This document shows, one piece after another, positions 4,816 through 23,728 of a stretch of 64,000 nt of DNA (the stretch's first letter is position 1; each line of letters begins with the position of its first letter). The notes beneath the pieces were generated by a model. It was not told the origin of the DNA. It made no database searches and saw only the letters and a list, made by a program, of their open reading frames with translations. A program made the translations under genes and the position numbers. This DNA is from Escherichia coli (GTDB taxonomy: Bacteria > Pseudomonadota > Gammaproteobacteria > Enterobacterales > Enterobacteriaceae), in NCBI RefSeq assembly GCF_003790525.1, contig NZ_CP033635.1; one strand, 5' to 3'.

Positions 4816-5463
4816 GCGGATGTATTGCCCCAGTTCACGCTGTTCGGCGCGCGGCAGATAAGGCAGTTCACCAATGAGCGGTGCCGGAAGTTTTTTACCG
4901 AGCACATCAATGATTTCCGCATAATGCGCAAGTCCTGGGTTGATTCGGTTAGCCACCCAGCCAATGAGCGGCAGCCCGTCGTTGGCAATCGCCTGAGCTG
5001 TTAGCAGTGCATGGTTAATGCAACCTTCCTGAATACCGACAACCATCAACACCGGCAGTTGTTCCTGCACCACCCATTCAGAGAGCGGACGCAAATCATT
5101 CATCAGACTGCGCCAGCCGCCAGTCCCTTCTACCACGACATGATCGACTTTATCGGTCAGGTTTGCCAGGCCGTTTGAAATGAGGGTGTAATTGATTGGG
5201 CAACTGTGCGCCACGCTACTTTCTTCTTCGCTTAACGCGATAGGATTAACTGCTTCATAAGGCAGTTCGATGGTTGAAACACTCTGCAACACCAGGGCAT
5301 CTTTATTACGCAGCCCTTCGGGTGTCTCTTTGCTCCCCTTCGCTACGGGTTTATATCCCGCAACCGTTTTTCCCTGGGAGGCTAACGCTTGTAGCAATGC
5401 GCGGGAAACCACCGTTTTCCCTACAGAAGTGTCTGTACCGGTAATAAAGAAACGCTTCAGCAT
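4768..5463 (-). CDS. ynfK: dethiobiotin synthetase paralog (BioD2)
   Basis: 231 aa from [17 protein letters not shown] (P-loop); 3' end overlaps clcB 3' end by 48 bp (convergent). Confidence 0.88.
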
Positions 5464-5587
5464 CACTAACTCCACCGTTATGCTTCACAAATATAAACCA
5501 GGAAAATAATTAACCTTGAAAGTCTAAGTTATGCTTTCCTGGCCCAAATTGAGATAGCGCAAATTTTGGTAGAACAGTTAAAAAATG

Positions 5588-12157: not shown

Positions 12158-12294
12158 ATGGCAAAGCCGATCATCACGCTCAATGGCCTAAAAATCGTCA
12201 TTATGTTGGGAATGCTGGTCATTATTCTCTGCGGTATCCGTTTTGCCGCCGAGATCATCGTGCCGTTTATTCTCGCATTATTTATTGCTGTTAT
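12158..12294 (+). pseudogene. tqsA: 5' fragment of tqsA (AI-2 exporter), first ~46 codons; reading frame then runs into element DNA and stops after 7 foreign codons
   Basis: ATG at 12158 encodes [45 protein letters not shown]; the remainder of the gene resumes in frame at 23729. Confidence 0.85.
12286..12294. repeat. attL core (direct repeat 'tgctgttat')
   Basis: Identical 9-mer at 23720-23728; chromosomal tqsA sequence on the left, element-specific sequence on the right. Confidence 0.7.
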
Positions 12295-12365
12295 ATATAA
12301 CTTATTTCGCTTAACTAATTGATTTAATTAAATAATTTGCACTACAAAAAGTGCCAAAAATCGCA

Positions 12366-12391
12366 AATTAACTACACCATTAACTACACCG
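12366..12391. repeat. 26-bp element-end repeat 'aattaactacaccattaactacaccg' (tandem 'ttaactacacc'), candidate integrase arm-type site, left end
   Basis: Exact 26-bp copy at 23567-23592 next to the int start; both copies in direct orientation just inside the element ends. Confidence 0.6.
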
Positions 12392-13466
12392 TTCGGCGCA
12401 CTGTATGAAACAACGTGGAACAAATAGACACAAGCGGCAGGCTATACCGTTATCATTTTTCAGCTATCCGTCATGAAGCTGGTGGATGATCACGGATAAC
12501 CAGGCATCTACAGCGCCTTAAAAAGCTGAACCCGACAAACATTTCTGCTTATCGGGTCCGATCGCTCTTTCTACTCGTGGCAGATGAGTTTACTAGGAAG
12601 GGGGGAACATTGTATCAGGCTATCCCCTTTCTGTGCTGATTCGGCTGGTGAATGATCTACTTGGGGCACTACACTTTTCGGATAGTGCGGGTATCCGGTT
12701 TTCTGCCTCATCGAATTTTAAGCCTTCTGACGGCCTGTATATCATTTCCTGTGGAGTTGCCGCCCTGATAGCGAATACTGCGGCAGCATGTGATTTACCC
12801 CCCGTTCTGTTGATGTTTGATGTGGCTGGTTGATGTGCTGCCATGTTTTCCGCCAATGGTGGAAAAGCCCACCAGCGCAACGCAGGACGCATAAAACCAT
12901 TGCGATGACTCTGGACGCAAAACCACGTTTAACGATGTTTTGCACTGAACCAGAATACTGTTCGTTTTTGTCTCGATGTCCGTACGTATTACGTCCGCAC
13001 CTAATCCGGCATCATGCCCACCAGCGTAACGCATTTTTTTAATTTCGTGGCTGTGCGTCCACCAGCTACGCCGGAATGGGGTATTCCGTTTCAACGGAAC
13101 AGGTATGACGAACATAATCGCACCTTCTCCCGAAAACGGTGCGACCTGCATCATCGAAATGGTGATTCAGCTACTCGGCGATTTTCACCATTCAGAATCT
13201 GGCGGGTGAGTTATCCAGCTTCCACCAATGGGGGATTCTGGAACAATCAACGGGTTACGCCTTATCAGCAAAAAAGCACATCAACTGTAAAGGAAATCGT
13301 TATGGTTGCTGGTGGGCTGCGTCACCATCATGGTGATGATGCTGTCCAGTCAGCCGGAACGGTTGAACAGGGTGGCTATGGGTCACTCTGTTGTGCGTTA
13401 TTTGCGTGATCCTGGTACGGGGTGACTATCTTTCAGATAGTCGGTTGCCTGGTTACACGAAAAAAT

Positions 13467-13775
13467 TTACTTCCTGCGTTTATCCTGCTTTGTATGCCCG
13501 TGCTGAATGCCCCGCAGTGGATCTTCTTTTTTCAGGTCGATCCCCATGTCCGTTAGTGTTTTTGTGGCGGCGGTTCTTATGGCACAAATCAGGTCTCTTT
13601 CCGGTTCCCGGGTTATGGTTGCCTTCCGGATGCATGCCGTTCGTCGTTCCGTTACATACTGACGCGCTTCATCACTTGCCGCCTGTTTCAGTAACTCACC
13701 CCAGCGATTAGCCGCCCGTCGCCATAAACCTTTCGCTTCCAGTTCTTCCGCTTTGTCATCATGCACCATAAGCAT
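13467..13775 (-). CDS. PerC-family-like putative transcriptional activator (copy 2)
   Basis: N-terminal MVHDDKAEELEAKGLWRRAANRWGEL resembles PerC/Pch activators (recalled) and is a paralog of the 17352-17624 ORF; start chosen at an internal Met. Confidence 0.45.
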   Translation of the reverse strand: MLMVHDDKAEELEAKGLWRRAANRWGELLKQAASDEARQYVTERRTACIRKATITREPERDLICAIRTAATKTLTDMGIDLKKEDPLRGIQHGHTKQDKRRK

Positions 13776-13883
13776 AATCCCATTGATACCTGTTAACTCT
13801 GAATGGTTGGTTTCTGTTCTTTTGATAATTTCCCGCATAGCTTATTGTATGACAGTACTGTCCCACAATAAGGAGTTGCACGC

Positions 13884-14174
13884 ATGAGAATGACTAGGCA
13901 CAAAAAACAGATTCTTGAACTCTACAAACCTGAGTATCGCGATTGGGTGCGGGTGGAGGCCGGAGATCCGCCTTTTGATGTTCGTGGTGTGACAGTGCTG
14001 CTCTATGGTTCCGAATATCGGCGATATCACATAGAGGCAACACGAAGGACGCTAAACGCTATGGTTCGTGATAAGTTGCTGGAGCGTGTGAAAGTCCGTG
14101 AGCCACGTTTTGATGTGCGTATTGGTGGCGATGGTGCGCATTGCACGGTAATCCGCTATGGCCTGGTAAGGTAA
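13884..14174 (+). CDS. hypothetical protein (96 aa), only plus-strand gene in the left half of the element
   Basis: ORF with ATG start; internal duplicated motif PPFDVRGV / PRFDVRIGG; followed by the palindrome 'cagaatgtaaatttacattctg'. No family recognised. Confidence 0.4.
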   Translation: MRMTRHKKQILELYKPEYRDWVRVEAGDPPFDVRGVTVLLYGSEYRRYHIEATRRTLNAMVRDKLLERVKVREPRFDVRIGGDGAHCTVIRYGLVR

Positions 14175-14276
14175 GCCATCGGGTAAATCAGATGATTAAA
14201 TCACCAGAATGTAAATTTACATTCTGCCAGCCACCAGCTACCCTCCTCAAAATTGAGGACCCTTTTTATCAACTGG

Positions 14277-14558
14277 TTACCGCCGCAACCGTTCCGGCTT
14301 CTTCCACTGATAAGTGTTTTTCGCGCTCTCCTGATACATCGCCACGCGTCGACGGTATGCCAGCAACTCTAGTACTCTGATTCGTATGTCGCGCATATCC
14401 ACGCCGTTAAGCTCAATACCATCACGGCGCATTACATCAGCAACAACACGCACATAATTTTCGGCGGTCACGCTGTCCGGCTGCGTGGCCTGTTCGTCAT
14501 GCTGCTGGCTGATTCCGGTAACGCGGCGGATTAATCCCAGTAGTTCGACTTCTGTCAT
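14277..14558 (-). CDS. hypothetical protein (~94 aa) immediately downstream of the cos/terS region
   Basis: ORF-track frame 14277..14756; start moved to the internal Met (MTEVELLGL...) so that it does not overlap the cos-like sequence. Function unknown. Confidence 0.4.
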   Translation of the reverse strand: MTEVELLGLIRRVTGISQQHDEQATQPDSVTAENYVRVVADVMRRDGIELNGVDMRDIRIRVLELLAYRRRVAMYQESAKNTYQWKKPERLRR

Positions 14559-14591
14559 TGTGCCCCCATCGCTCTGATAGTCTGGTGTCGT

Positions 14592-14655
14592 CGGGTCCTT
14601 TCCGGCATGTGGACCCGTTACGGGGCGTCGACCTCGCGCGTTTTCACTATTTATG
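14592..14655 (+). other. lambda-like cos site, copy A (cosN plus flanking sequence)
   Basis: 'cgggtcctttccgg...gttacggggcgtcgacctcgcgcgttttcactatttatgaaaattttt' closely parallels the phage lambda cos junction as I recall it ('...acgggtcctttccggtgatccgacaggttacg|gggcggcgacctcgcgggttttcgctatttatgaaaattttccgg'); the 12-mer gggcgtcgacct at 14623-14634 differs from the lambda cohesive end at one base. Confidence 0.75.
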
Positions 14656-14671
14656 AAAATTTTTCGGGATC

Positions 14672-14770
14672 CATGTCCGGTTTCTCTGCAAGTTAACCAT
14701 ATGAAAAATATAAAAACATGCTTTCCATGAACCGGACATGCGCAAAAAACAGACACTAAAACCGGACATC
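14672..14770. promoter_or_regulatory. cosB-like array: three 'ccggacat' repeats (one inverted, two direct) with an AT-rich spacer, candidate binding sites for the element's Nu1-like protein
   Basis: 'catgtccgg' at 14672-14680, 'accggacatg' at 14731-14740, 'accggacatc' at 14761-14770; located on the cosB side of cos copy A, where lambda has R3-I1-R2-R1. Confidence 0.5.
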
Positions 14771-14837
14771 GAACCAGTTAACCGAAAGTGTGCACAAATC
14801 ACATTCATTGCTGCGAGTGATTAACAAGTTATCGGCT

Positions 14838-15272
14838 TTACTGTTCTGTATCGGCTGATTGCTCCATGCTGGCACGGCGAACGCTTACGGCATGACGCCA
14901 CCCAGCCAGAAAGCCAGCCATTTTATTTCGTGCCTTGCTCACATCTTCCGGTGAATAGCCGTAAATATGCAAACCTTCATCAAATCGATGTTCTGTTTCT
15001 TCACTGGAGTACTCGTCACGCTCAGATGAAAGCAGCCTCGCAAACATAATTTTTTCCAGCGCACTGGTTTCTACGTGATATCCGATGGTCTGAAGATGGC
15101 TTTTACCTGAATACCAAAGCAATGTATGCCCGATGTGATAACCGCCAGACTTTCCGCGATCCGCATTAAGATACGGCATCCCCTGTTTGGTCCATGCGCG
15201 AATAGTGGTTCTGTTAACCTTGAAATGTTCAGCTATTTCCTGCTGACTTACAAAACAAGCTTTATCAATCAT
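14838..15272 (-). CDS. terminase small subunit Nu1-like DNA-binding protein (possible packaging-specificity/redirecting factor)
   Basis: N-terminus QQEIAEHFKVNRTTIRAWTKQGMPYL parallels lambda Nu1 KKQLADIFGASIRTIQNWQEQGMPVL (winged HTH); C-terminal half unlike Nu1; flanked by cos-like sites. Confidence 0.65.
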   Translation of the reverse strand: MIDKACFVSQQEIAEHFKVNRTTIRAWTKQGMPYLNADRGKSGGYHIGHTLLWYSGKSHLQTIGYHVETSALEKIMFARLLSSERDEYSSEETEHRFDEGLHIYGYSPEDVSKARNKMAGFLAGWRHAVSVRRASMEQSADTEQ

Positions 15273-15339
15273 AATGTTACCTTAACTGCATGGTTAAATA
15301 TCAATCAAGTGGTGGTGGTGTCACCTTCACGGAAAAACG

Positions 15340-15403
15340 TCATAAATAGCGAAAACGTGCGAGGTCGACGCCCCGTAACGGGTCCACATGCCGGAAAGGA
15401 CCC
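15340..15403 (-). other. lambda-like cos site, copy B (inverted copy of A, cosN plus flank, without the 'ccggacat' array)
   Basis: Reverse complement matches copy A at 62 of 64 positions; lies ~70 bp upstream of the Nu1-like gene start on the same strand. Confidence 0.7.
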
Positions 15404-15404
15404 G

Positions 15405-15430
15405 CAAAAAAAGCCGGATTTCTCCGGCCT
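15405..15430 (-). terminator. rho-independent terminator after the head-gene cluster (minus strand)
   Basis: Minus-strand hairpin ggccggagaaatccggcc followed by a T-run; related hairpin motif at 17324-17345. Confidence 0.5.
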
Positions 15431-15502
15431 TGTCTCAGATGGTTTTCAGTATGCGATAGATGTCGCCGTCATCGCCCTGGTTTGTGCCATCGTTCCCCCT
15501 GC

Positions 15503-15838
15503 TTATCGGGCCAGCGGCTGAACGGATACGCCGGAACCCGCAAAGGCGGCGCATTTTTTCGCATCGGTGTCGACGCTCTCAGGCCAGTTAACGGCGGCAA
15601 TATTGAATATCCCCGTCTTGTAACACTGTGCTGATTTCTGCTTTGACGTGTCCACAGGGTACGAGGTCAGATAAACAGCCTTGCCAGATTCCTTACCATC
15701 CCACGCCTTAAACTCGCCATTGTCTGCCAGCATCAGCGGGGTAAATTCCTGAATAACGCCAGCATCAGCGGCAAAATGTACCAGCGTCGTGGATACCTGT
15801 TGGCTGCCTGAAAATAACTCAATGTATGGAGCGTCCAT
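15503..15838 (-). CDS. head decoration protein, lambda gpD-like
   Basis: 111 aa; motifs TPLMLADNGEFKAWDG, YKTGIF, NWPE and KKCAAFAG parallel lambda gpD (TPLMLDTSSRKLVAWDG, YKSGTF, LWPE, KKRTAFAG) as recalled. Confidence 0.7.
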   Translation of the reverse strand: MDAPYIELFSGSQQVSTTLVHFAADAGVIQEFTPLMLADNGEFKAWDGKESGKAVYLTSYPVDTSKQKSAQCYKTGIFNIAAVNWPESVDTDAKKCAAFAGSGVSVQPLAR

Positions 15839-15849
15839 AGAATCCCCCG

Positions 15850-16905
15850 TTAAGCAATTTTGACGGTAACAAATTTGCGAATATCTGCCGGTACAGGCTG
15901 CGGTGCGCTGTGCGTCTGCACGTACTCAATCGCCGGATCGCCGTCCTCAATCCAGTTTTTCGGGTAGTACATGTTTTGCGTTGCGCCCGTTCTTACCGCT
16001 TCCTGATCCATAATCGCACCATATGCCACCAGCCCTTTATTGTTGGTGTTACCCAGGACCAGCAAATCAGGCTCAAGGAAATATTTTTCGGTCCCGTCGC
16101 TGTCAGTGTATTTGCCGGAATAGACGATAAGGGCCAGATCACCAAGATAGCCTTTAAAGCTCACCACTTCGCCCAGGTTTTTACAGGCCAGCTCGGCGGC
16201 GGATTCTGATCCACGGGAAAGATCGTACAGTTCACGGAATTTTTTAAAGCTGCGTAATGTGCGCCATACCTCACCGCCCATAATCATGACGTTGGCGGGG
16301 CAACCTGCCTGATCAGCATAAAGCTCGATGTCATAGATTGGGTCGTGCATGTCTTTATCCTGCTGGGACCATTTTTTACCACTGGCCTGCTGTATGATGC
16401 AGTTTTCCGGTATTTTCCAGTCGATTTCATAGCGTTCTATGCCTTCGCCCTCAATGATGTTTTTTCCGGTCGTTACCGCATTCACCGCCAGCCATTCCAC
16501 GCGCGCCTTAATGGCGTTTATCTGGCGGCGCATGTTGCCAGTAATCAGGCGCATACGGCGGTAAGTTGGATCGTTAAGCTGTGCCGGATCTTCTCCATCC
16601 ATGCGCATGATGGTCTTTGTTGGATCGATTTCGTGCTTTGGCTTCATGTAGCCTGGTTTAATCGTGCTGGTTTCGTACCCTTTATCGCGCTGGACCTGAC
16701 TACCCACCATAGGAGAACAGAACGCTGACATCGTAACCTCTTCAATGTCCAGGGTGTCCAGCATGATGTTTTGGGTGTTGAAGGTCGCCACGTTCGGGAA
16801 AAACAGCGTGGTAAACAGCGGACTAAATTTATATTCCGAAATATCCCCGCGATTCAGGTACGCGAAAAGCTGGTTAGTTGTAAGTGCCTTTGCTTTGCCT
16901 GTCAT
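15850..16905 (-). CDS. major capsid protein, lambda gpE family
   Basis: 351 aa; YKFSPLFTTLFFP and PGYMKPKHEIDP parallel lambda gpE FKFDPLFLRLFF and PGYVKPKHEVNP; similar length to gpE. Confidence 0.75.
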   Translation of the reverse strand: MTGKAKALTTNQLFAYLNRGDISEYKFSPLFTTLFFPNVATFNTQNIMLDTLDIEEVTMSAFCSPMVGSQVQRDKGYETSTIKPGYMKPKHEIDPTKTIMRMDGEDPAQLNDPTYRRMRLITGNMRRQINAIKARVEWLAVNAVTTGKNIIEGEGIERYEIDWKIPENCIIQQASGKKWSQQDKDMHDPIYDIELYADQAGCPANVMIMGGEVWRTLRSFKKFRELYDLSRGSESAAELACKNLGEVVSFKGYLGDLALIVYSGKYTDSDGTEKYFLEPDLLVLGNTNNKGLVAYGAIMDQEAVRTGATQNMYYPKNWIEDGDPAIEYVQTHSAPQPVPADIRKFVTVKIA

Positions 16906-17111
16906 TATTCACCTCCGTGAACCTGATTGATACCCAGCGCCGCACGCAAATAGGTGCGCACCTGCCAGCCTGTTGACGGCTCAACCATCGCCAGCGGATC
17001 AAGTCCTGCCGCAATGCCTGCTTTTACATTCTGCTGGTGGCGTTCCTTGAGCGCCTCCACGATGTCGGGGCTTATGTAGACCGTCACCCCGCCTTTTTTC
17101 TCTTCTGCCAT
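16905..17111 (-). CDS. hypothetical protein (68 aa), first gene of the head cluster
   Basis: ORF with ATG start, stop overlaps the capsid gene start; no family recognised. Confidence 0.4.
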   Translation of the reverse strand: MAEEKKGGVTVYISPDIVEALKERHQQNVKAGIAAGLDPLAMVEPSTGWQVRTYLRAALGINQVHGGE

Positions 17112-17323
17112 AGTCAGAAATTCCTCTTTGACTTAAAAAATCATAACTGGATGTTCATCCAGTCCTGATTATAATCATGATTGCATTTTGCGCAACAATA
17201 TTGAGTTACGTTGCAAATTATGAAATGATTATCCCGATCATGTGTGTCAGTTCACCATAAAAAACCTCGTATACAAAAGCCCCATAAGCCCCCTGTGACC
17301 TTATCGGGCTTTTTTTAGGCGTA

Positions 17324-17345
17324 AAAAAGCCGGATTGCTCCGGCT
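17324..17345 (-). terminator. rho-independent terminator downstream of the PerC-like gene (minus strand)
   Basis: Minus-strand hairpin gccggagcaatccggc followed by TTTTTT. Confidence 0.5.
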
Positions 17346-17351
17346 GTGTGC

Positions 17352-17624
17352 TCACTTCTGCGGGTAGTTGCGCCATATTGCTTTGCCAATACCAGCTATC
17401 CCCATTTGTTTTTCAGTGCGATTAACTGACCTTTTCAGAGCGCCTAAATCATCCGGCGGCTCCGGTGGCCTCTGTGCCTTACGGATACATTCCGCGCGAC
17501 GCATTGCCACCTGTTCGCGCTCCTTGTCTGTCTCCACCAGCCTCATAACTTCACCCCATCGCGCCGCCGCCCTCCGGTAAAAGCCTTTTGCCTCGAGTTC
17601 CTCCGCTATGCGGTCATGTACCAT
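17352..17624 (-). CDS. PerC-family-like putative transcriptional activator (copy 1)
   Basis: MVHDRIAEELEAKGFYRRAAARWGEV...; paralog of the 13467-13775 ORF; start placed at the internal Met just after the ssb stop. Confidence 0.45.
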   Translation of the reverse strand: MVHDRIAEELEAKGFYRRAAARWGEVMRLVETDKEREQVAMRRAECIRKAQRPPEPPDDLGALKRSVNRTEKQMGIAGIGKAIWRNYPQK

Positions 17625-17634
17625 CGTCACCCCC

Positions 17635-18045
17635 TCAGAACGGAATATCATCACCGTAAGGGTCATCGCCTCCCGCTGGTGGCTGATTACCCTGTGTGCC
17701 TGTGGTTTTGCGTCTGTTCCCGCCAGGACGTGCCGCACGGGCACTGATTACGCTGTCTGCAATAACCTGCCAGCCCTGCCGCGTTTCCCCGTTCTGTCCG
17801 GTCCACTGGCTGACCTGCATCGTGCCGGATACGCTGGCAACGTCGCCTTTTTGATGTTTAGCCAGAAAGTCGGCCTGTTTGCCAAATGCGATGACCGATA
17901 ACCATAACGTCGCCTGTCCGTCCTGTGCCTGGCCGCATGGTAAAGATACCGCCATACGCGCCAGCGTCATCGGTGTACCCTTACTGGTCTGTTTTACCTG
18001 CGGGTCGTCCACCAGCCGCCCGTAAGCTGCTATCTGTGCTGTCAT
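17635..18045 (-). CDS. ssb: single-stranded DNA-binding protein (SSB)
   Basis: 136 aa with OB-fold-like core, Gly/Pro/Gln-rich linker and the acidic C-terminal tail ...DDIPF typical of SSB. Confidence 0.7.
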   Translation of the reverse strand: MTAQIAAYGRLVDDPQVKQTSKGTPMTLARMAVSLPCGQAQDGQATLWLSVIAFGKQADFLAKHQKGDVASVSGTMQVSQWTGQNGETRQGWQVIADSVISARAARPGGNRRKTTGTQGNQPPAGGDDPYGDDIPF

Positions 18046-18284
18046 GCTGTCTGCTCTCCGGTTTTAACGTTGATGGTTGTTACCTGTTCTGCTTCGGCAA
18101 TATCCCGCTCTGTCAGCGTGGCAAAGTTTGCCGCCGTCGTTGTCATGAATGCGCTTATCAGTTCGGGATGTGCTTTCGCGTATCCTTCCCCTGTGTTGCG
18201 GTCGATGATTTTTATCGCCACCCTCAGCCAGTGCTCTGTAAGGTCAATGGCGCGGTGATCTGTCTTTTTGTGGCTTACCTTCAT
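18042..18284 (-). CDS. hypothetical protein (80 aa)
   Basis: ORF in the replication module, overlaps ssb start by 4 nt (coupled); no family recognised. Confidence 0.45.
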   Translation of the reverse strand: MKVSHKKTDHRAIDLTEHWLRVAIKIIDRNTGEGYAKAHPELISAFMTTTAANFATLTERDIAEAEQVTTINVKTGEQTA

Positions 18285-18287
18285 GAT

Positions 18288-18656
18288 TTACTCCAGAGTA
18301 CCGCTATTGCTGCTGTCGTTAACCGGATACCAGGCAAATACCATCGATTCACCACAGTGAACAAACTTCTTATCCGGCAGATAAAGGCACTCGCACATTC
18401 CCTCATCAGGACTATGCGGACTCATGCCCAGCTCACTGGTCAGCACGGGTAAGATTTCGCGGCAGGTGTTCCCCGCACCGAAATAATCAACCTCACAAAG
18501 CGCCCATGCAGCAATCGGGCTGTACCATTCCGTGCCGTCGTCGTCTTTGAACTTAGCCCACCAGCCAGGAAGGGCAGTTGATATGCTCAGTGTTTCAATT
18601 TCAGTGTTCATAAATTTACCTTCGGTATTTTGTCCTGCTGTTCGATTTTTATTCAT
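18288..18656 (-). CDS. hypothetical protein (122 aa or shorter)
   Basis: ORF directly downstream of the iteron region; Cys-containing; no family recognised. Confidence 0.45.
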   Translation of the reverse strand: MNKNRTAGQNTEGKFMNTEIETLSISTALPGWWAKFKDDDGTEWYSPIAAWALCEVDYFGAGNTCREILPVLTSELGMSPHSPDEGMCECLYLPDKKFVHCGESMVFAWYPVNDSSNSGTLE

Positions 18657-18860
18657 TGCTCACCATCTCTCACTTTTACTACTCACTTTTTAAAGCGTCT
18701 CGCTTCGTCTCACTTGAGATTTTTGTGTTTTGTATGTGCATGTTTCATAAGTGTTTTTTCACTGCTCACTTTTGAGCATGTATACAGGTGAGAAAGTGAG
18801 TAATTGTGTTAATATTTTGTAAAAACCTCACCATTACTCACTTTTACTACTCACTTTTTA
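18657..18860. repeat. iteron array, candidate replication origin ('ctcactttt' repeated ~7 times, one inverted, around an AT-rich core)
   Basis: Copies at 18669, 18682, 18709 (variant), 18765, 18793 (inverted), 18837 and 18850; 'ctcacttttactactcacttttta' occurs twice; lies immediately 3' of the rep ATPase gene. Confidence 0.6.
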
Positions 18861-20264
18861 CAGTGGTCCTACATCATCACCATCAATGTAAATCACGGCG
18901 TCTTTTTCCAGTTTGGCTAACCATCGCCGCATATTTTTCACGTCATACCCAAGCCGTTTCATGTCATCACGTAACAGCGGGATCGTGCACTTGTCGCCGT
19001 TCTGTGTGCGTGAACGGATGCACCCCCATAGCGCGGTATGGTTTTCCGTCTTGTTGCCTGCCTCCTCGATGCGCTCCAGTTCAGCAGGGGCGCGGGGAAC
19101 GTCAATCACCACCATGGACACAATTTCTTCGCCATCTGTATCGGTGAACACCTCCACGCTTTTAAGGTCGTATGCACTCTCTTTTGGCTCCTCTGCGTCC
19201 TTCATCTTCGTACACGCCGCAACCAGTGCTGTAACGTCTGAATTTTCCCTGCTGATTCGGTACTCTGCATCAAGCGCGGCACGGAATGCACTGGAACCAC
19301 GCGCCCCCTTTGTTTCATCCTTGCCGGAATGGTGAACCACCAGCACCGTGGCCCCTGTGGCCTGCTTTATCGCGTCACACCCCTGGATAAATGCGCCCAT
19401 ATCACGGGAATCATTTTCATCATTCCCACCAAAGCAACGGGCCAGCGTGTCGATCACAATCAGCCGCACATTTTCGCCCGTTCTGCTCTTAACAAGTCCG
19501 GCAGTCCTGATAACCTGCTCCACATAGTCAGGCGATGCAGGGAAAACAGGCGCGTTAATGATGCACAAATCTGTAACCACCTTGTCGTGGGTTATCTCCC
19601 ACGCCTTAACGCGGCGTTTTACGCCCATGCTGCCTTCACCAGCGATATAGATAACCGCACCCTTACTTACCCTGCGGCCTCCCCATGCCATACCTGTGGC
19701 AACATGGCACGACCAGGAAATGGCGAGGAACGATTTATAAGAACCGCTGGCCCCGTAGGTGCTGCATAATGACTCAGCCGGAATAAGCCCCTTAATGACG
19801 TAGCTTTGCTGCGCATCGAATCCCTCAGAACCCCATGAGATGGGAAGTGTGATTTTTCGCTTTCCGCCATTCATGACCAGGCTTTCCCCTCTCTCCCATG
19901 TTTCCCGTAGTCGTGGTAGCTGGTCGCTCCAGTCCTCCAGCAGTTCGAAATTTTCAGAAAGTAGCCGCGCCTCCTGGACTCCGGCGATCGCCAGTTTTGT
20001 GGCAATGGTCAGCATCTGCATATCGTCCAGGTTTCCGGCGCGTATGACCTTTACCCTGTATCGTCCTTCATCAACAATCTGTAAGTTGTCCAGTTCGCTT
20101 AACTGATAACGGCCCAGATAAACCGGAGGGATGGGATCGCCTGCTTTTTTGGCCTGTGCAATCATGTAATGTTCTGCAAAGGAGTGAGCATTATCACCCG
20201 CAAAAATAACCGCCTCAGTGTGTTTATCTTTCGGTAACAGTTTTACGTTCGGTGCAAGTTTCAT
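18858..20264 (-). CDS. replication protein with RecA-like P-loop ATPase domain (RepA/DnaB-like, satellite pri-rep type)
   Basis: 468 aa; Walker A YGASGSYKS, Walker B-like RLIVIDTL, HHSGK motif; C-terminal region possibly DNA-binding; iterons directly downstream. Confidence 0.65.
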   Translation of the reverse strand: MKLAPNVKLLPKDKHTEAVIFAGDNAHSFAEHYMIAQAKKAGDPIPPVYLGRYQLSELDNLQIVDEGRYRVKVIRAGNLDDMQMLTIATKLAIAGVQEARLLSENFELLEDWSDQLPRLRETWERGESLVMNGGKRKITLPISWGSEGFDAQQSYVIKGLIPAESLCSTYGASGSYKSFLAISWSCHVATGMAWGGRRVSKGAVIYIAGEGSMGVKRRVKAWEITHDKVVTDLCIINAPVFPASPDYVEQVIRTAGLVKSRTGENVRLIVIDTLARCFGGNDENDSRDMGAFIQGCDAIKQATGATVLVVHHSGKDETKGARGSSAFRAALDAEYRISRENSDVTALVAACTKMKDAEEPKESAYDLKSVEVFTDTDGEEIVSMVVIDVPRAPAELERIEEAGNKTENHTALWGCIRSRTQNGDKCTIPLLRDDMKRLGYDVKNMRRWLAKLEKDAVIYIDGDDVGPL

Positions 20265-20548
20265 TTCTTACCCCCTGCGACCAGCATTTCACGGATTTTG
20301 CGGATATAACTTGCAGCACGTTTCTGATTAACGGCTTTACGATGGCCCACCAGCGTGAAATCACGCCGGAACTGATAAACAGGCATAACGCAGTCATATT
20401 CGTAGCCTTCACGGCGGTAAGTGATGCGACGTTCCTCCACGCCCTTAATCATTACCGTGCCGCCGTAGTTATCACGGAAAATATCGCCGGGACGGATTTC
20501 AGGACGAGCGGGGCCGCTGGCATTAACGCCAGAATTTTTATTTTTCAT
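20261..20548 (-). CDS. hypothetical protein (95 aa), translationally coupled upstream of rep
   Basis: ORF overlapping the rep start by 4 nt; basic; no family recognised. Confidence 0.45.
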   Translation of the reverse strand: MKNKNSGVNASGPARPEIRPGDIFRDNYGGTVMIKGVEERRITYRREGYEYDCVMPVYQFRRDFTLVGHRKAVNQKRAASYIRKIREMLVAGGKK

Positions 20549-20553
20549 GTTTT

Positions 20554-20781
20554 TTATTCTCCGGTGTGCTGTTCTTTATATCTGTCGTGAATTGCCATCA
20601 CTGTATTTAATTCATTAATAACAGCCGTTAATAGCGTACGCACGGCAGAAAACATCATTGAATCAGATTCATCGCCACTTTCCTGCACATCAATTAAATT
20701 AAGTAGTAATGCGTCCATTTCCTTTGCGCGGATTAATGCCTTTTCACAATGAAAAATAACACCAAAGGGTATTTTATTCAT
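20554..20781 (-). CDS. hypothetical protein (~75 aa; ORF-track frame extends to 20823)
   Basis: First gene of the minus-strand replication operon; start uncertain (MNKIPFGV... versus the upstream Met). Confidence 0.4.
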   Translation of the reverse strand: MNKIPFGVIFHCEKALIRAKEMDALLLNLIDVQESGDESDSMMFSAVRTLLTAVINELNTVMAIHDRYKEQHTGE

Positions 20782-21060
20782 GACTCCCCTCCTGACGGAT
20801 ACGGGCGGCGAATACAGCGACACAACCGGACGGGCAACGGTTACGCGCTTCGCGTTCCGTCCAGGCGGTCACGTGGATAATTTGAGATTCTCCGGCACTC
20901 AGTGCCAGAAAACGCCACACAAAGGCGGTTTGTGTGTGCGCTAGTCGTGGGGTATGCTGTGTTCCAGCCATAATCGTTACTCCTGTTAACGGTTTGGTTA
21001 GACGCCCTGCATGTGTTACAGCACTGCGGGGCGTTGTCTTTTTAACGGCTTTCGTGATAG

Positions 21061-21104
21061 GGTGTACACCTATCAAGCAAAAACATAACGCTATAGGTGT
21101 ACAC
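21061..21104. promoter_or_regulatory. perfect 12-bp inverted repeat (gtgtacacctat ... ataggtgtacac), candidate operator abutting a small regulator gene
   Basis: Read directly from sequence; the 3' half ends 1 nt before the ATG at 21105. Confidence 0.5.
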
Positions 21105-21299
21105 ATGTCAACAGTTATTAAGCGAGATAAAAAACCAAAGGGAACAGGAAAAGCCCCCCCATTCCATATGCGAATAGCTCCAGAACTGAAAGAGCAGTTT
21201 GATAATGAGGCCAGCAATGATGGGGTAAGCCTAGCCAACTGGCTTAAAGAGTTGGGGCGCGCCGAACTAAAGCGACGCGGCATTGAACCTAAAGGCTGA
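21105..21299 (+). CDS. small basic protein (64 aa), possible ribbon-helix-helix/YlcI-YnfO-like prophage regulator
   Basis: MSTVIKRDKKPKGTGKAPPFHMRIAPELKEQFDNEASNDGVSLANWLKELGRAELKRRGIEPKG; family assignment from memory only; divergent from the replication operon. Confidence 0.4.
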   Translation: MSTVIKRDKKPKGTGKAPPFHMRIAPELKEQFDNEASNDGVSLANWLKELGRAELKRRGIEPKG

Positions 21300-21302
21300 T
21301 GT

Positions 21303-21426
21303 ATGACTGAAAAGCAGACCGATAACAAACTTTCTCTACCAGAGAATAAACCAGCAGGCTTCTTACCAAGAAAAATCCTTGATGAGATCAAACGCCGCCA
21401 GCGCCGCAAGGCCAAAGAGCAGGAAT
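21303..21426 (+). CDS. possible small protein (41 aa, Lys/Arg-rich C-terminus)
   Basis: ATG 4 nt after the preceding stop; MTEKQTDNKLSLPENKPAGFLPRKILDEIKRRQRRKAKEQE; followed by a strong hairpin terminator. Too short for the ORF track. Confidence 0.25.
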
Positions 21427-21460
21427 AGCCCACCAGCAAGCCAGCACACTGATCACATTG

Positions 21461-21490
21461 GCCACCGTGACAGGTGGCCTTTTCTTTGCC
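21461..21490 (+). terminator. rho-independent terminator (ggccaccgtgacaggtggcc + T-rich tract)
   Basis: Perfect 7-bp stem with 6-nt loop followed by ttttctttg, just after the 41-codon ORF. Confidence 0.55.
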
Positions 21491-21752
21491 CGTTATCCGG
21501 CAATTGTGGCGCTTCGCCACACGGTTGATATAATTCCCCTGCTCAGATTCATTTTTTGCGCGGCAGGTAAATTGTTCAGAAAGGCGGCTCCTTATCGGGG
21601 CCGCTTTTTTTATGTCTGAAAAACCGCGATTTTGTTGTTTTTCAGTTTCACCAGGCCGAACGAAGCCCCGCCCATGTTCGGGCGTATATCCAGTCTTCAT
21701 GGTTAAATCTCTGTATTAGTGGATGGGTGGCGGCTGTGTGCCGCCAGTCTTT

Positions 21753-21941
21753 TTAGTGAACTGCCTCGCAGCTTTCCTTCCATGCCAGAACTTCGGATAA
21801 AGACCAGCCAACGGAACGACCGCCCAGCTTACGCCGTGATGGGAATTGTCCGGCCTTTTCCAGGCGGTAGCGGCATGAGCGGCTAAGGCCTGTTAGCTTT
21901 TCGCATTCTTTTTCACGTATAAAGCGATCAGTGCTTAACAC
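21753..21941 (-). CDS. alpA: AlpA-family (Phage_AlpA) transcriptional regulator
   Basis: 62 aa; ...EKLTGLSRSCRYRLEKAGQFPSRRKLGGRSVGWSLSEVLAW... matches the AlpA HTH signature; adjacent to int. Confidence 0.75.
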   Translation of the reverse strand: MLSTDRFIREKECEKLTGLSRSCRYRLEKAGQFPSRRKLGGRSVGWSLSEVLAWKESCEAVH

Positions 21942-22315
21942 TATTGCCCCCTTTCGTTTCTTAAAGAGTTATTTCGTGTTCTATTGCGTTGGGATGTGTC
22001 TGATTGTGTCAGGGTGATTCAGAGTTGGCAAATGTTGGTGGCGGGTATTTTACAGAAACGGGGTGATTTTAATAAAAATCATTTTAATTCAGTATTATGC
22101 AAAGGCATAAAATCTCGTTTTATGCCTTTTTTCTCACTATTTAAAGCGTTATTCGCTAATGTATAAAAAACCAGTTGAGCATTAAAAATCAGCAACTTAT
22201 AAATCTGTATACTTTTTGACCTCTTGTTCGTGGTTGTTTCACGTTGTTGTGTATTGTTGCACGTTGTATCTGTGCACTTATCCAGTATGCGCATACTGAA
22301 AAAACACGAAAAAAA

Positions 22316-23563
22316 TTATTTTCTTCTGGCTACTGGTAGCGTGGTTACGTTTTCATGTGCTCCCGCCAGTATCTCCAACCGCTCCACCCACATATCCAGC
22401 GCATTGCGTTTCGCATCCAGATAACGGGAATGATTATAAACTCGCTGCATTCCTGGCATCTGGTGGCCTGTAAGCTGCTCCACGACGTGAGGATCCACGC
22501 CTAAATCGTTCAGCATCGTTGTAAAGGTGCGCCGGATGTCATGCAGTGACCATTGAGGGTGTTTTAGCCTCCTGTGCGCTAATCTGCCGTACTGCGATAC
22601 GCTGGCCTCCTGTTTCACTTCCCCCAGTAATAAGCCCGTGTGCCTGTTCTGCTCCACCAGCCGCGTGACGAACGGCAGGATCGCTTCCGGTATGGGCCGG
22701 AATATTGCGACCTTCGTTTTGCTGTGCTCCTTCGGAACGGTCCAGAGCATTTCCGTGAAATCCCACTCCCCGATCTCCGATAACCTCAGTTCTACCGTCC
22801 TGGCTCCGAAGACAATCAGGAGGCGGATTAGTGCGACGTAGTAAGGGGAAAATATTTTTTTGTCCAGTGCCTGCAATAATTCGCCCAGTTCTTTGGTGCT
22901 TAAGACACGTTCGCTTATATCCGGTTTTTTCCCAACGTCCGCCACGTTCAGATCGTCCAGAACGTTGCTGATTGCATAGCGCCGCCTCCGGCAAAACTTA
23001 AGCGCCTGTTTGCACGCCTGTAGCACGAATCCGGCAGTAACAGGCGTTCGCTTTGCCACCCGATCAAAACAGGCCAGCCAGTGCCGTAGCTCGCATTTAT
23101 CCAGCGGCATAGCACCAATGTGCTGTATTACGTGATTATTAAGTCGCCTTTTCAGGGCGATATAATCCACGCGGTTTTCCTTTACGTAAGACTCAAGCCA
23201 GTAGGTGAGCGCATCTCCAACCGTTACAGGCTTTAACGCTTCCTGCATGGTGTAATTCATCTCATGACGTGGATTTTTCCCCTCAGCCAGCCATGCGCGA
23301 CACTGGGCGGCTTTTTCCCTGGCTGATTTCAGGCTCAGATCAGGATAATTTCCCAGCTTAATACGTTCCGGTCGTGTCTCTCTTCCCGTTCCGGCCCTGT
23401 AAGTGAAATACCAGGTTAAAAGGCCGCTGGTTGAATGCCTGACGCTCAGATTTCCACCGTCATTAAGAAAGGCTGTTTTTTGGGCGGGTGTGCCGTTGAT
23501 TTTCCTTAGCTGTGTATCGCTCAGCTTGTTAAGTGCTCTGGTCATAATTTTGAATCCGGTCAT
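22316..23563 (-). CDS. int: tyrosine site-specific integrase (P4-type)
   Basis: ~415 aa; N-terminal arm-binding-like region, C-terminal catalytic motifs (HDIRRTF, GHQ..VYNHSRY); located at the element's right end next to the arm-type repeat. Exact start uncertain (GTG/ATG/ATG cluster). Confidence 0.85.
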   Translation of the reverse strand: MTGFKIMTRALNKLSDTQLRKINGTPAQKTAFLNDGGNLSVRHSTSGLLTWYFTYRAGTGRETRPERIKLGNYPDLSLKSAREKAAQCRAWLAEGKNPRHEMNYTMQEALKPVTVGDALTYWLESYVKENRVDYIALKRRLNNHVIQHIGAMPLDKCELRHWLACFDRVAKRTPVTAGFVLQACKQALKFCRRRRYAISNVLDDLNVADVGKKPDISERVLSTKELGELLQALDKKIFSPYYVALIRLLIVFGARTVELRLSEIGEWDFTEMLWTVPKEHSKTKVAIFRPIPEAILPFVTRLVEQNRHTGLLLGEVKQEASVSQYGRLAHRRLKHPQWSLHDIRRTFTTMLNDLGVDPHVVEQLTGHQMPGMQRVYNHSRYLDAKRNALDMWVERLEILAGAHENVTTLPVARRK

Positions 23564-23566
23564 CAC

Positions 23567-23592
23567 AATTAACTACACCATTAACTACACCG
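23567..23592. repeat. 26-bp element-end repeat (same as 12366-12391), right end, immediately upstream of int
   Basis: Exact 26/26 identity with the left copy. Confidence 0.6.
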
Positions 23593-23719
23593 ATCGTTGC
23601 ACAAAGGGCTACAACGTGAAACAAGCTGGAACAAGAAAAATCACAAATTTGTTTATAATCAAAAACATAATGCACAACCTGAAACATTATGAAACGGCAA
23701 AAAACACTAATTGATAAAG

Positions 23720-23728
23720 TGCTGTTAT
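23720..23728. repeat. attR core (direct repeat 'tgctgttat')
   Basis: Identical to 12286-12294; element sequence on the left, tqsA sequence on the right. Confidence 0.7.

Follow-up and report, generated by a model that had tools for sequence, protein, structure and literature searches.

Positions 12392-13466 of a 64-kb stretch of an Escherichia coli chromosome (contig NZ_CP033635.1; the window, 64,000 nucleotides at its full length) raise the question of what about a kilobase of DNA with no convincing gene is doing at the left end of a phage satellite. The region, which we call the spacer, is 1075 bp long and runs from the left attachment (att) arm repeats of the satellite to a gene for a PerC-family regulator. 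The satellite itself occupies 12297-23728 and is a Gram-negative phage-inducible chromosomal island (PICI) of the EcCICFT073 type. Our analysis leads us to think that the spacer probably has no gene and acts in cis, as the non-coding terminal region at the integrase-distal end of a PICI that relies on Chi and RecBCD. By sequence comparison, it is a patchwork of short modules in circulation among satellites of E. coli.

We first consider coding capacity. The open reading frames (ORFs) of the spacer are short and overlap on both strands. Shuffles of this region put the 95th percentile for the longest ORF at 127 amino acids (aa), and the longest ORFs observed (131 and 119 aa) are at or just above that value. 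For eight equivalent spacers of relatives, the longest ORFs reached 65-136 aa, against shuffle 95th percentiles of 113-167 aa. Stop-masked six-frame translations of the spacer gave no Pfam match, and a PHROG scan of the same frames gave a sole match, which was spurious and lay in the att arm. Rfam 15 returned nothing at the gathering score over the window and only a spurious mir-15 match at E<=5, and a promoter scan of the spacer found no promoter-like site. The ORF shuffles, Pfam, PHROG and Rfam thus bear out the first-pass annotation, which had described short overlapping ORFs and no convincing gene. It had also proposed a frame-tolerant protein search and a comparison with related elements; the six-frame Pfam and PHROG scans gave no cargo gene, and no relative examined has an intact conserved gene at this position. 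PGAP calls two 'hypothetical proteins' here in strain PKF11, both of which cross mosaic breakpoints and are unannotated in the relatives examined. Hypothetical proteins called in such spacers are probably spurious.

The suggestion that this could be a degraded cargo gene finds marginal backing in two scraps and in nothing longer. One is a short stretch of antirepressor-like codons:

13010-12957, minus strand: ORF6N antirepressor-like scrap of about 18 codons (AGLGADVIRTDIETKTNS, aligned with residues 56-73 of phage phi467; tblastn E = 0.004)

The other, 13 residues long, matches the C-terminal tail of an ORF in the related locus L005 (72 aa, annotated as a KilA-N domain protein); the matched tail consists of sequence from a conserved block described below (block C) and is not the KilA-N part. 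With fragments of 18 codons at most and ORFs within chance length, neither a protein-coding gene nor a recognisable pseudogene was found.

What the spacer does contain is Chi. The short repeat quoted in the first-pass annotation is real (12867-12884 and 13016-13033, 18 nt, 94% identical), and its Chi content had been missed: the repeat, GCCCACCAGCG(C/T)AACGCA, contains the reverse complement of Chi (GCTGGTGG). The window holds 22 exact Chi sites, 16 in the 11.4-kb element (1 per 0.7 kb) and 6 in the other 52.6 kb. Five of them fall in the spacer:

12478-12485, plus strand: Chi, within a 37-bp patch (12465-12501) common to other satellites
12869-12876, minus strand: Chi, in the first copy of the 18-nt repeat and in an 87-bp module found in L002-L004 and L005
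13018-13025, minus strand: Chi, in the second copy of the 18-nt repeat and within a 48-bp patch (13007-13054)
13059-13066, minus strand: Chi, at the left edge of block C
13308-13315, plus strand: Chi, in block C, kept in L002-L004, L008 and L009

At the E. coli average of 0.22 Chi per kb, the Poisson probability of at least five sites in the spacer is 5e-6. Chi is the most frequent 8-mer both in the spacer (5 copies; next 3) and in the whole element (16; next 8), and it also ranks first in L002 (17; next 9), L004 (14; next 8), EcCICFT073 (11; next 6) and most IMG/VR relatives, though not in the flanking chromosome. The 24 one-mismatch variants of Chi average 0.58 copies each in the element against 16 exact sites, so it is the exact octamer that is in excess. 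Genes carry ten Chi, where shuffling synonymous codons gene by gene predicts 2.04 and none of 2000 shuffles reached ten, so the excess is not explained by codon usage. Of the eight genic sites on the sense strand, seven encode Leu-Val as CTG-GTG. The non-coding DNA of the element (3.0 kb) has six Chi, five of which lie in the spacer, and nearly all the short patches still shared by spacers that have otherwise diverged contain one. In EcCICFT073 (L019 14888-26300) we counted 11 Chi in 11.4 kb and two in 18.6 kb of flanking DNA, with none in a 6.7-kb prophage remnant within those flanks. No Gam or phage recombinase appears among the PGAP names and Pfam matches, an absence that is annotation-limited, as several small ORFs are unassigned. 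The Chi cluster points to a putative satellite-wide dependence on the host RecBCD pathway.

How such a dependence might work can be outlined from the way the element is likely to be packaged. Two cos sites lie to the right of the spacer:

14590-14660, plus strand: lambda-like cos site; its cosN is GGGCGTCGACCT
15340-15405, minus strand: second lambda-like cos site, inverted, followed by a minus-strand Nu1/Rpp-like helix-turn-helix gene (15272-14838)

Each cosN differs from that of lambda by one mismatch, and the flanks carry lambda-like cosQ and I2. The 144-aa helix-turn-helix protein encoded between the two sites (14838-15272, minus strand) matches Phage_Nu1 at E = 0.0064, below the Pfam cut-off. 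In EcCICFT073, which also has two cos sites, Rpp redirects the TerS of the helper (PMC6092414, PMC6739421), and the satellite is packaged as phage-length concatemers or multimers (PMC6092414, PMC10111431). A cos-packaged satellite would have to make concatemers, and its DNA ends would be exposed at cos cleavage and after injection. If neither Gam nor Red is present, RecBCD would degrade the rolling-circle tails and linear DNA of the satellite. Chi would turn RecBCD from a degrader into a RecA loader, and could thereby protect concatemers and cos-cut ends while promoting RecA-dependent multimer formation and module exchange; the spacer, presumably without coding constraint, would hold the densest cluster of Chi. 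The presence of Chi in both orientations in the spacer fits the two inverted cos sites.

Two other functions tied to packaging and replication were considered and rejected for the spacer. A cos or pac site within 12392-13466 was ruled out, with cosN-like sites found at 14623 and 15362 only. A replication origin was set aside, as no iteron array was found in the spacer apart from the Chi-like 18-mers; the PICI origin reportedly lies downstream of pri (PMC10111431). To the right of the first cos site we noticed three CCGGACAT repeats, one of them inverted, which could be satellite-specific cosB elements.

The first-pass annotation started from the expectation that a satellite of this size would not normally carry a kilobase of spacer. 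This premise fails: nine related satellites at other att sites all carry 0.55-2.5 kb of DNA at the integrase-distal end, most of it unannotated. They lie beside yejO (two strains), yifB, tRNA-Ile, clpS, hpt (two different satellites) and phoQ (EcCICFT073). A spacer is therefore normal for the family. The full 1075 bp is nevertheless rare, being present in just 3 of 5426 complete E. coli genomes, and comparison with relatives resolved it into parts with separate distributions:

12465-12501 and 13007-13054: short patches of 37 and 48 bp, also in the spacers of L002-L005
12662-12820: module found in about 150 genomes at 72-76% identity, unannotated
12825-12911: 87-bp module, at a different position in L002-L004
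12869-12982: module found in L005 in a different order
13047-13345: block C, non-coding, found in 187 genomes at the integrase-distal end of very different satellites
13346-13466: block D, the 3' flank of the PerC gene, which travels with PerC in relatives

Module order differs in L005, L007 and L008, and relatives hold an insertion of 137-180 bp at the junction of blocks C and D. Between these two blocks, L003 (about 4990-5035) and L004 (about 5430-5470) carry a (CCAG)n run of 9-11 copies where the window has a single CCAGTCAGCC; the number of copies varies from strain to strain, much as a slippage-prone tract would. In strain 2012EL-2448, an unannotated segment of about 0.8 kb (L021 3455-4284) also contains 12693-12820 at 76% identity. 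The island there has PerC genes, an antiterminator Q-family gene and, at 4964, a hairpin with an IHF-like unit. The anatomy, conservation and statistics of the spacer are given here as they were observed.

Block C has an invariant core, TTTCAACGGAAC.GGTATGACGAACAT.ATCGCACCTTCTCCCGAAAACGG, with variable patches that are swapped between three alternatives. Carriers of block C have unrelated packaging modules and include a protease-capsid-fusion PICI, a capsid-forming PICI (terL, terS, HNH) and nine IMG/VR contigs. An exact scan for a 19-nt core found nine IMG/VR contigs, and an exact-pattern scan for the 38-nt core in one genome per species gave no match. RNAalifold predicted invariant helices on both strands of block C, with little covariation outside one hairpin. 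That hairpin belongs to one of three features which we single out here:

12848-12864: hairpin or palindrome TTCCGCCAATGGTGGAA (z = -3.4), with a Chi site 4 nt further on
13219-13257, plus strand: hairpin-IHF module, made of a hairpin (13219-13236) followed by AATCAACGGGTTA at 13245-13257
14231-14279, plus strand: second hairpin-IHF module, outside the spacer, made of Chi in minus orientation (14231-14238), a hairpin (14242-14257), a U-run and an IHF consensus (14267-14279)

The hairpins are small and GC-rich, and the hairpin sequence TTCCACCAATGGGGGAT at 13220-13236 and TTCCGCCAATGGTGGAA are the only two such sites in the 64 kb. AATCAACGGGTTA starts about 10 nt past the hairpin and is a perfect match to WATCAANNNNTTR, which we take to be the consensus for integration host factor (IHF) and on which the predicted IHF sites are called. 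Across relatives, the stem at 13219-13236 changes in sequence while its pairing is kept, with 95% of cells paired against 35-62% in slid controls. Double changes occur in two of the pairs, and none of 500 shuffles reached the covariation score. The first-pass annotation had raised the possibility of a non-coding RNA locus. The conserved block with its covarying hairpin and a strong minus-strand terminator (see below) speak for this; the empty Rfam and promoter scans speak against it.

Hairpin and IHF core recur together in the family. Over all fetched loci, 36 of 39 matches to ATCAACNN[GA]TTA fall in satellite terminal regions, in one orientation, and each of the 36 is preceded by a hairpin of differing stem sequence, so that the unit consists of a hairpin, A/T-rich DNA and an IHF core. 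Stems include TTCCACC/GGTGGAA, CCCCC/GGGGG, CCTCA/TGAGG, CAGCC/GGCTG, TTCGCC/GGCGAA, TCCTCA/TGAGGA and GGCTCA/TGAGCC. The IHF consensus occurs 1.93 times per kb in nine spacers and 0.095 times per kb in the host DNA of the window. In the present element, the cassette formed by PerC and a 96-aa ORF lies between the units at 13219-13257 and 14242-14279, and the IHF consensus of the latter (14267-14279) overlaps the stop codon of a 93-aa gene; EcCICFT073 has three units in tandem and no cassette. These units could bend DNA, stabilise or terminate transcripts, or act as short homologies for cassette exchange, roles that the sequences do not tell apart.

The left edge of the element has features of an att arm:

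12288-12296: attL core TGCTGTTAT, the same 9 bp as at attR (23720-23728), by direct sequence reading
12297-12436: attachment-site arm, conserved up to 12434
12312-12324, minus strand: IHF consensus in the arm, 30 bp from the att core
12367-12390: two tandem arm-type repeats ATTAACTACACC, a repeat also found on the other arm, next to int

Here 12366-12423 is 81% identical to 23567-23624 on the opposite arm (a 58-bp similarity), and the first 45 bp or so of the spacer (12392-12434) are common to about 1000 E. coli genomes, including CFT073 with its EcCICFT073. An arm with integrase repeats and an IHF site would serve integration and excision. The proposal of an attP-proximal regulatory region therefore applies to the first 140 bp or so of the element, where the arm repeats, the IHF consensus and the conserved arm are found, and not to the remainder.

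Beyond the arm we identified a predicted intrinsic terminator:

12559-12528, minus strand: intrinsic terminator, a 14-bp stem followed by UUUUU, within the feature span 12518-12559

Its folding energy is -24.1 kcal/mol (z = -4.4) on the minus strand against -10 kcal/mol (z = -0.4) on the plus strand. Since almost all satellite genes are on the minus strand, it is likely the end of the leftward operon, and it would stop this long operon about 230 bp before the host junction. The 70-bp module that contains it (12519-12589) is 86% identical to P1 52906-52976 (L020 801-871) and also occurs in P7; in P1 it comes directly after the stop codon of rlfB, where rlfB and pmgF converge. Mimicry of helper-phage DNA was rejected as a general explanation of the spacer, as blastn against 50,697 phage records gave only this P1 terminator module and the 48-bp ORF6N patch.

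The remaining gene content is that of a satellite. Host DNA around the element is E. coli chromosome (ynfM-asr-ydgD-mdtIJ, then pntBA), and the 11.43-kb insertion lies in and splits tqsA, for which the annotation of strain PKF11 (99.9% identical) gives two partial pieces. Pfam identified a tyrosine integrase at 22316-23566 (Arm-DNA-bind_3 and Phage_integrase domains), AlpA (PF05930) and, as the replication gene, a RepA-type AAA_25 helicase. Capsid genes are limited to homologues of the lambda E-like capsid and D-like decoration proteins, and there is no full set of phage structural and lysis genes. PGAP names in PKF11 and Pfam add an Icd-like protein, DUF4222, SSB and two PerC regulators. The att repeats, integrase, AlpA, replication module and a size within 10-20 kb place the element among the PICIs. 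Closest to the spacer is the following gene:

13467-13838, minus strand: PerC-family regulator (PF06069, E = 7.6e-23), the first clear gene right of the spacer

In the 45-bp gap between this gene and the divergent 96-aa ORF, 13841-13872 forms a near-perfect palindrome of 16+16 bp (CTTATTGTATGACAGT / ACTGTCCCACAATAAG) that looks like an operator. A further palindrome, AATGTAAATTTACATT, lies at 14208-14225, where the 96-aa ORF and the 93-aa gene leave a gap, just upstream of the minus-orientation Chi at 14231 and the second hairpin-IHF module. Elsewhere, 21037-21383 replaces 21648-21908 of the PKF11 element (L001), the two elements being otherwise 99.8% identical. The replaced segment yields a 308-aa ORF (20774-21700, minus strand) that Pfam does not match; at this place PKF11 has Icd-like and YlcI/YnfO genes.

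Other accounts of the spacer have to be weighed against a Chi-bearing, cis-acting terminal region. We consider it unlikely that the spacer is inert debris, the scar of repeated cargo gain and loss, functionless beyond the att arm and with Chi that mirrors a satellite-wide bias. Such a scar would leave remnants like the ORF6N scrap and the 13-residue match to the KilA-N-annotated ORF of L005, and would fit both the extreme mosaicism of the full-length sequence, with its varying module order, and the 555 bp with which EcCICFT073 manages. It fits poorly with detectable gene debris that totals fewer than 35 codons, with a block C kept at the same end despite unrelated packaging modules, with a covarying hairpin and a strong, strand-specific terminator, and with the concentration of non-coding Chi in the spacer. 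That block C instead encodes a small RNA or a 34-aa peptide common to PICIs and capsid-forming PICIs, perhaps a regulator of the helper phage or the host, seems to us distinctly improbable. The candidate peptide is encoded as follows:

13105-13209, plus strand: candidate 34-aa small ORF MTNIIAPSPENG..., weak evidence, starting in the block C core

Such a product would go with an invariant core (about 60 nt) that lies between swapped variable patches, with the covarying hairpin on the 3' side and with a weak promoter-like TTCAAC-17-CATAAT at 13080-13108, read by eye, and the ORF, which starts MTN(I/M)IAPSPENG, keeps its frame in two of three variants. In the third and commonest variant, however, it is cut to 21 aa, and tblastn found no match to it in phages. 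There was no Rfam match even at the relaxed threshold, the promoter scan was empty, and RNAalifold covariation outside the hairpin was slight; with only three sequence types, the conservation of block C may also mean recent exchange.

Finally, the spacer could be a length stuffer that holds the unit near 11.4 kb, four copies of which (45.7 kb) would fill a lambda-size head when packaged from cos to cos. Although they differ in gene content, the present element and EcCICFT073 each measure about 11.4 kb, and the latter is reportedly packaged as phage-length concatemers (PMC6092414, PMC10111431). We nonetheless regard this as very improbable, given that the spacers of relatives range from 0.55 to 2.5 kb and that the Chi, IHF and hairpin content would be left unexplained.

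Several observations also weigh against the reliance on Chi and RecBCD that we favour. At the element's own Chi rate, the cluster in the spacer is just modestly significant (P = 0.019). Orientation is 12:4 here and about 1:1 in EcCICFT073, L002, L004 and L018, whereas Chi-rich phages are strongly biased; with two inverted cos sites the reference end is undefined, and the 'active' orientation of Chi is therefore ambiguous. Two IMG/VR contigs (L010 and L011) show little enrichment. Related spacers share ancestry, so that Chi and IHF counts across loci are non-independent. Lambda-type helpers make Gam, and Chi would thus be redundant when such helpers induce the satellite. The functions proposed for RecBCD, IHF and the terminator are deduced from sequence patterns.

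A broader proposition would apply to E. coli PICIs as a class. They may be saturated with Chi, through synonymous choice and most densely in the terminal region, to survive RecBCD independently of Gam, with hairpin-IHF modules as junctions for cassette swapping. Chi would then drive RecA-dependent multimerisation and cassette exchange, and the hairpin-IHF modules would be cis-acting junctions where PerC-like cassettes swap between unrelated satellites. We put this forward tentatively and consider it possible but doubtful.

As vehicles of gene transfer, PICIs are of major importance in Enterobacteria, and their helper dependence is usually framed through proteins. If our interpretation is right, the Chi excess means that PICIs also depend on the host RecBCD/RecA pathway. 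Their spread could then vary with the helper (Gam-plus or Gam-minus) and with the host (by recBCD status and species-specific Chi), and there could be consequences for module swapping and for the design of synthetic PICI vectors. For annotation, members of the EcCICFT073-type family normally have about 1 kb without ORFs at the integrase-distal end.

Of what we describe, the element type, the cos sites, the PerC cargo and the Chi richness of lambdoid phages that lack a recombination (Rec) module were already known. The closest known system is EcCICFT073 (PMC6092414, PMC6739421). It shares with the present element the integrase arm sequence, two lambda-like cos sites, a size of about 11.4 kb and the gene order int-alpA-replication-SSB-PerC-capsid E/D-Rpp-like, and it has terminal hairpin-IHF modules and a Chi excess of its own. 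The EcCICFT073 packaging study makes no mention of RecBCD or IHF. The present element differs in its position in tqsA and in having a RepA-type helicase where EcCICFT073 has a primase. It adds a left-end module composed of the spacer of about 1.1 kb, PerC and the 96-aa ORF, at a place where EcCICFT073 has no more than 555 bp.

The hairpin-IHF modules have a chromosomal counterpart of sorts in the bacterial interspersed mosaic elements BIME-1 of E. coli, also called repetitive IHF-binding palindromic (RIP) elements, in which repetitive extragenic palindromic (REP) sequences flank an IHF site. Both are presumably comparable as small extragenic palindromes combined with an IHF consensus at the 3' ends of genes, a resemblance from which we claim no membership. 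By eye the satellite stems are not REP-like, each unit has one hairpin and one IHF core, and the units are confined to satellite ends.

The logic that we propose for Chi is the one worked out by Stahl, Smith and Kobayashi with lambda red gam chi+. Without Gam and Red, the rolling-circle tails and cos-cut ends of lambda are substrates of RecBCD, and Chi restores growth through the stimulation of RecA/RecBCD recombination that yields packageable multimers. The satellite is a natural element and not a laboratory mutant, and for it the same logic is a proposal.

Among natural replicons, the best parallel is with lambdoid phages that have no Rec module and abundant Chi, and whose growth is affected by RecBCD (PMC12315714; also PMC3784561). 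Phage LLS, for example, has 23 Chi (1 per 1.86 kb), 20 of them in active orientation (PMC12315714). The paper on these phages does not mention satellites, and we found no report of a Chi excess in PICIs or other phage satellites in the searchable literature. Like these phages, the present element is a cos-packaged, lambdoid-related replicon with no recognisable recombination or Gam module, in which Chi tops the octamer counts and far exceeds host density. Unlike them, it is a satellite with two inverted cos sites and no consistent orientation bias across relatives, its dependence on RecBCD is putative, and its Chi are denser (1 per 0.7 kb against 1 per 1.86 kb in LLS). If our reading is correct, the strategy of combining high Chi with no Rec module extends from phages to their satellites.

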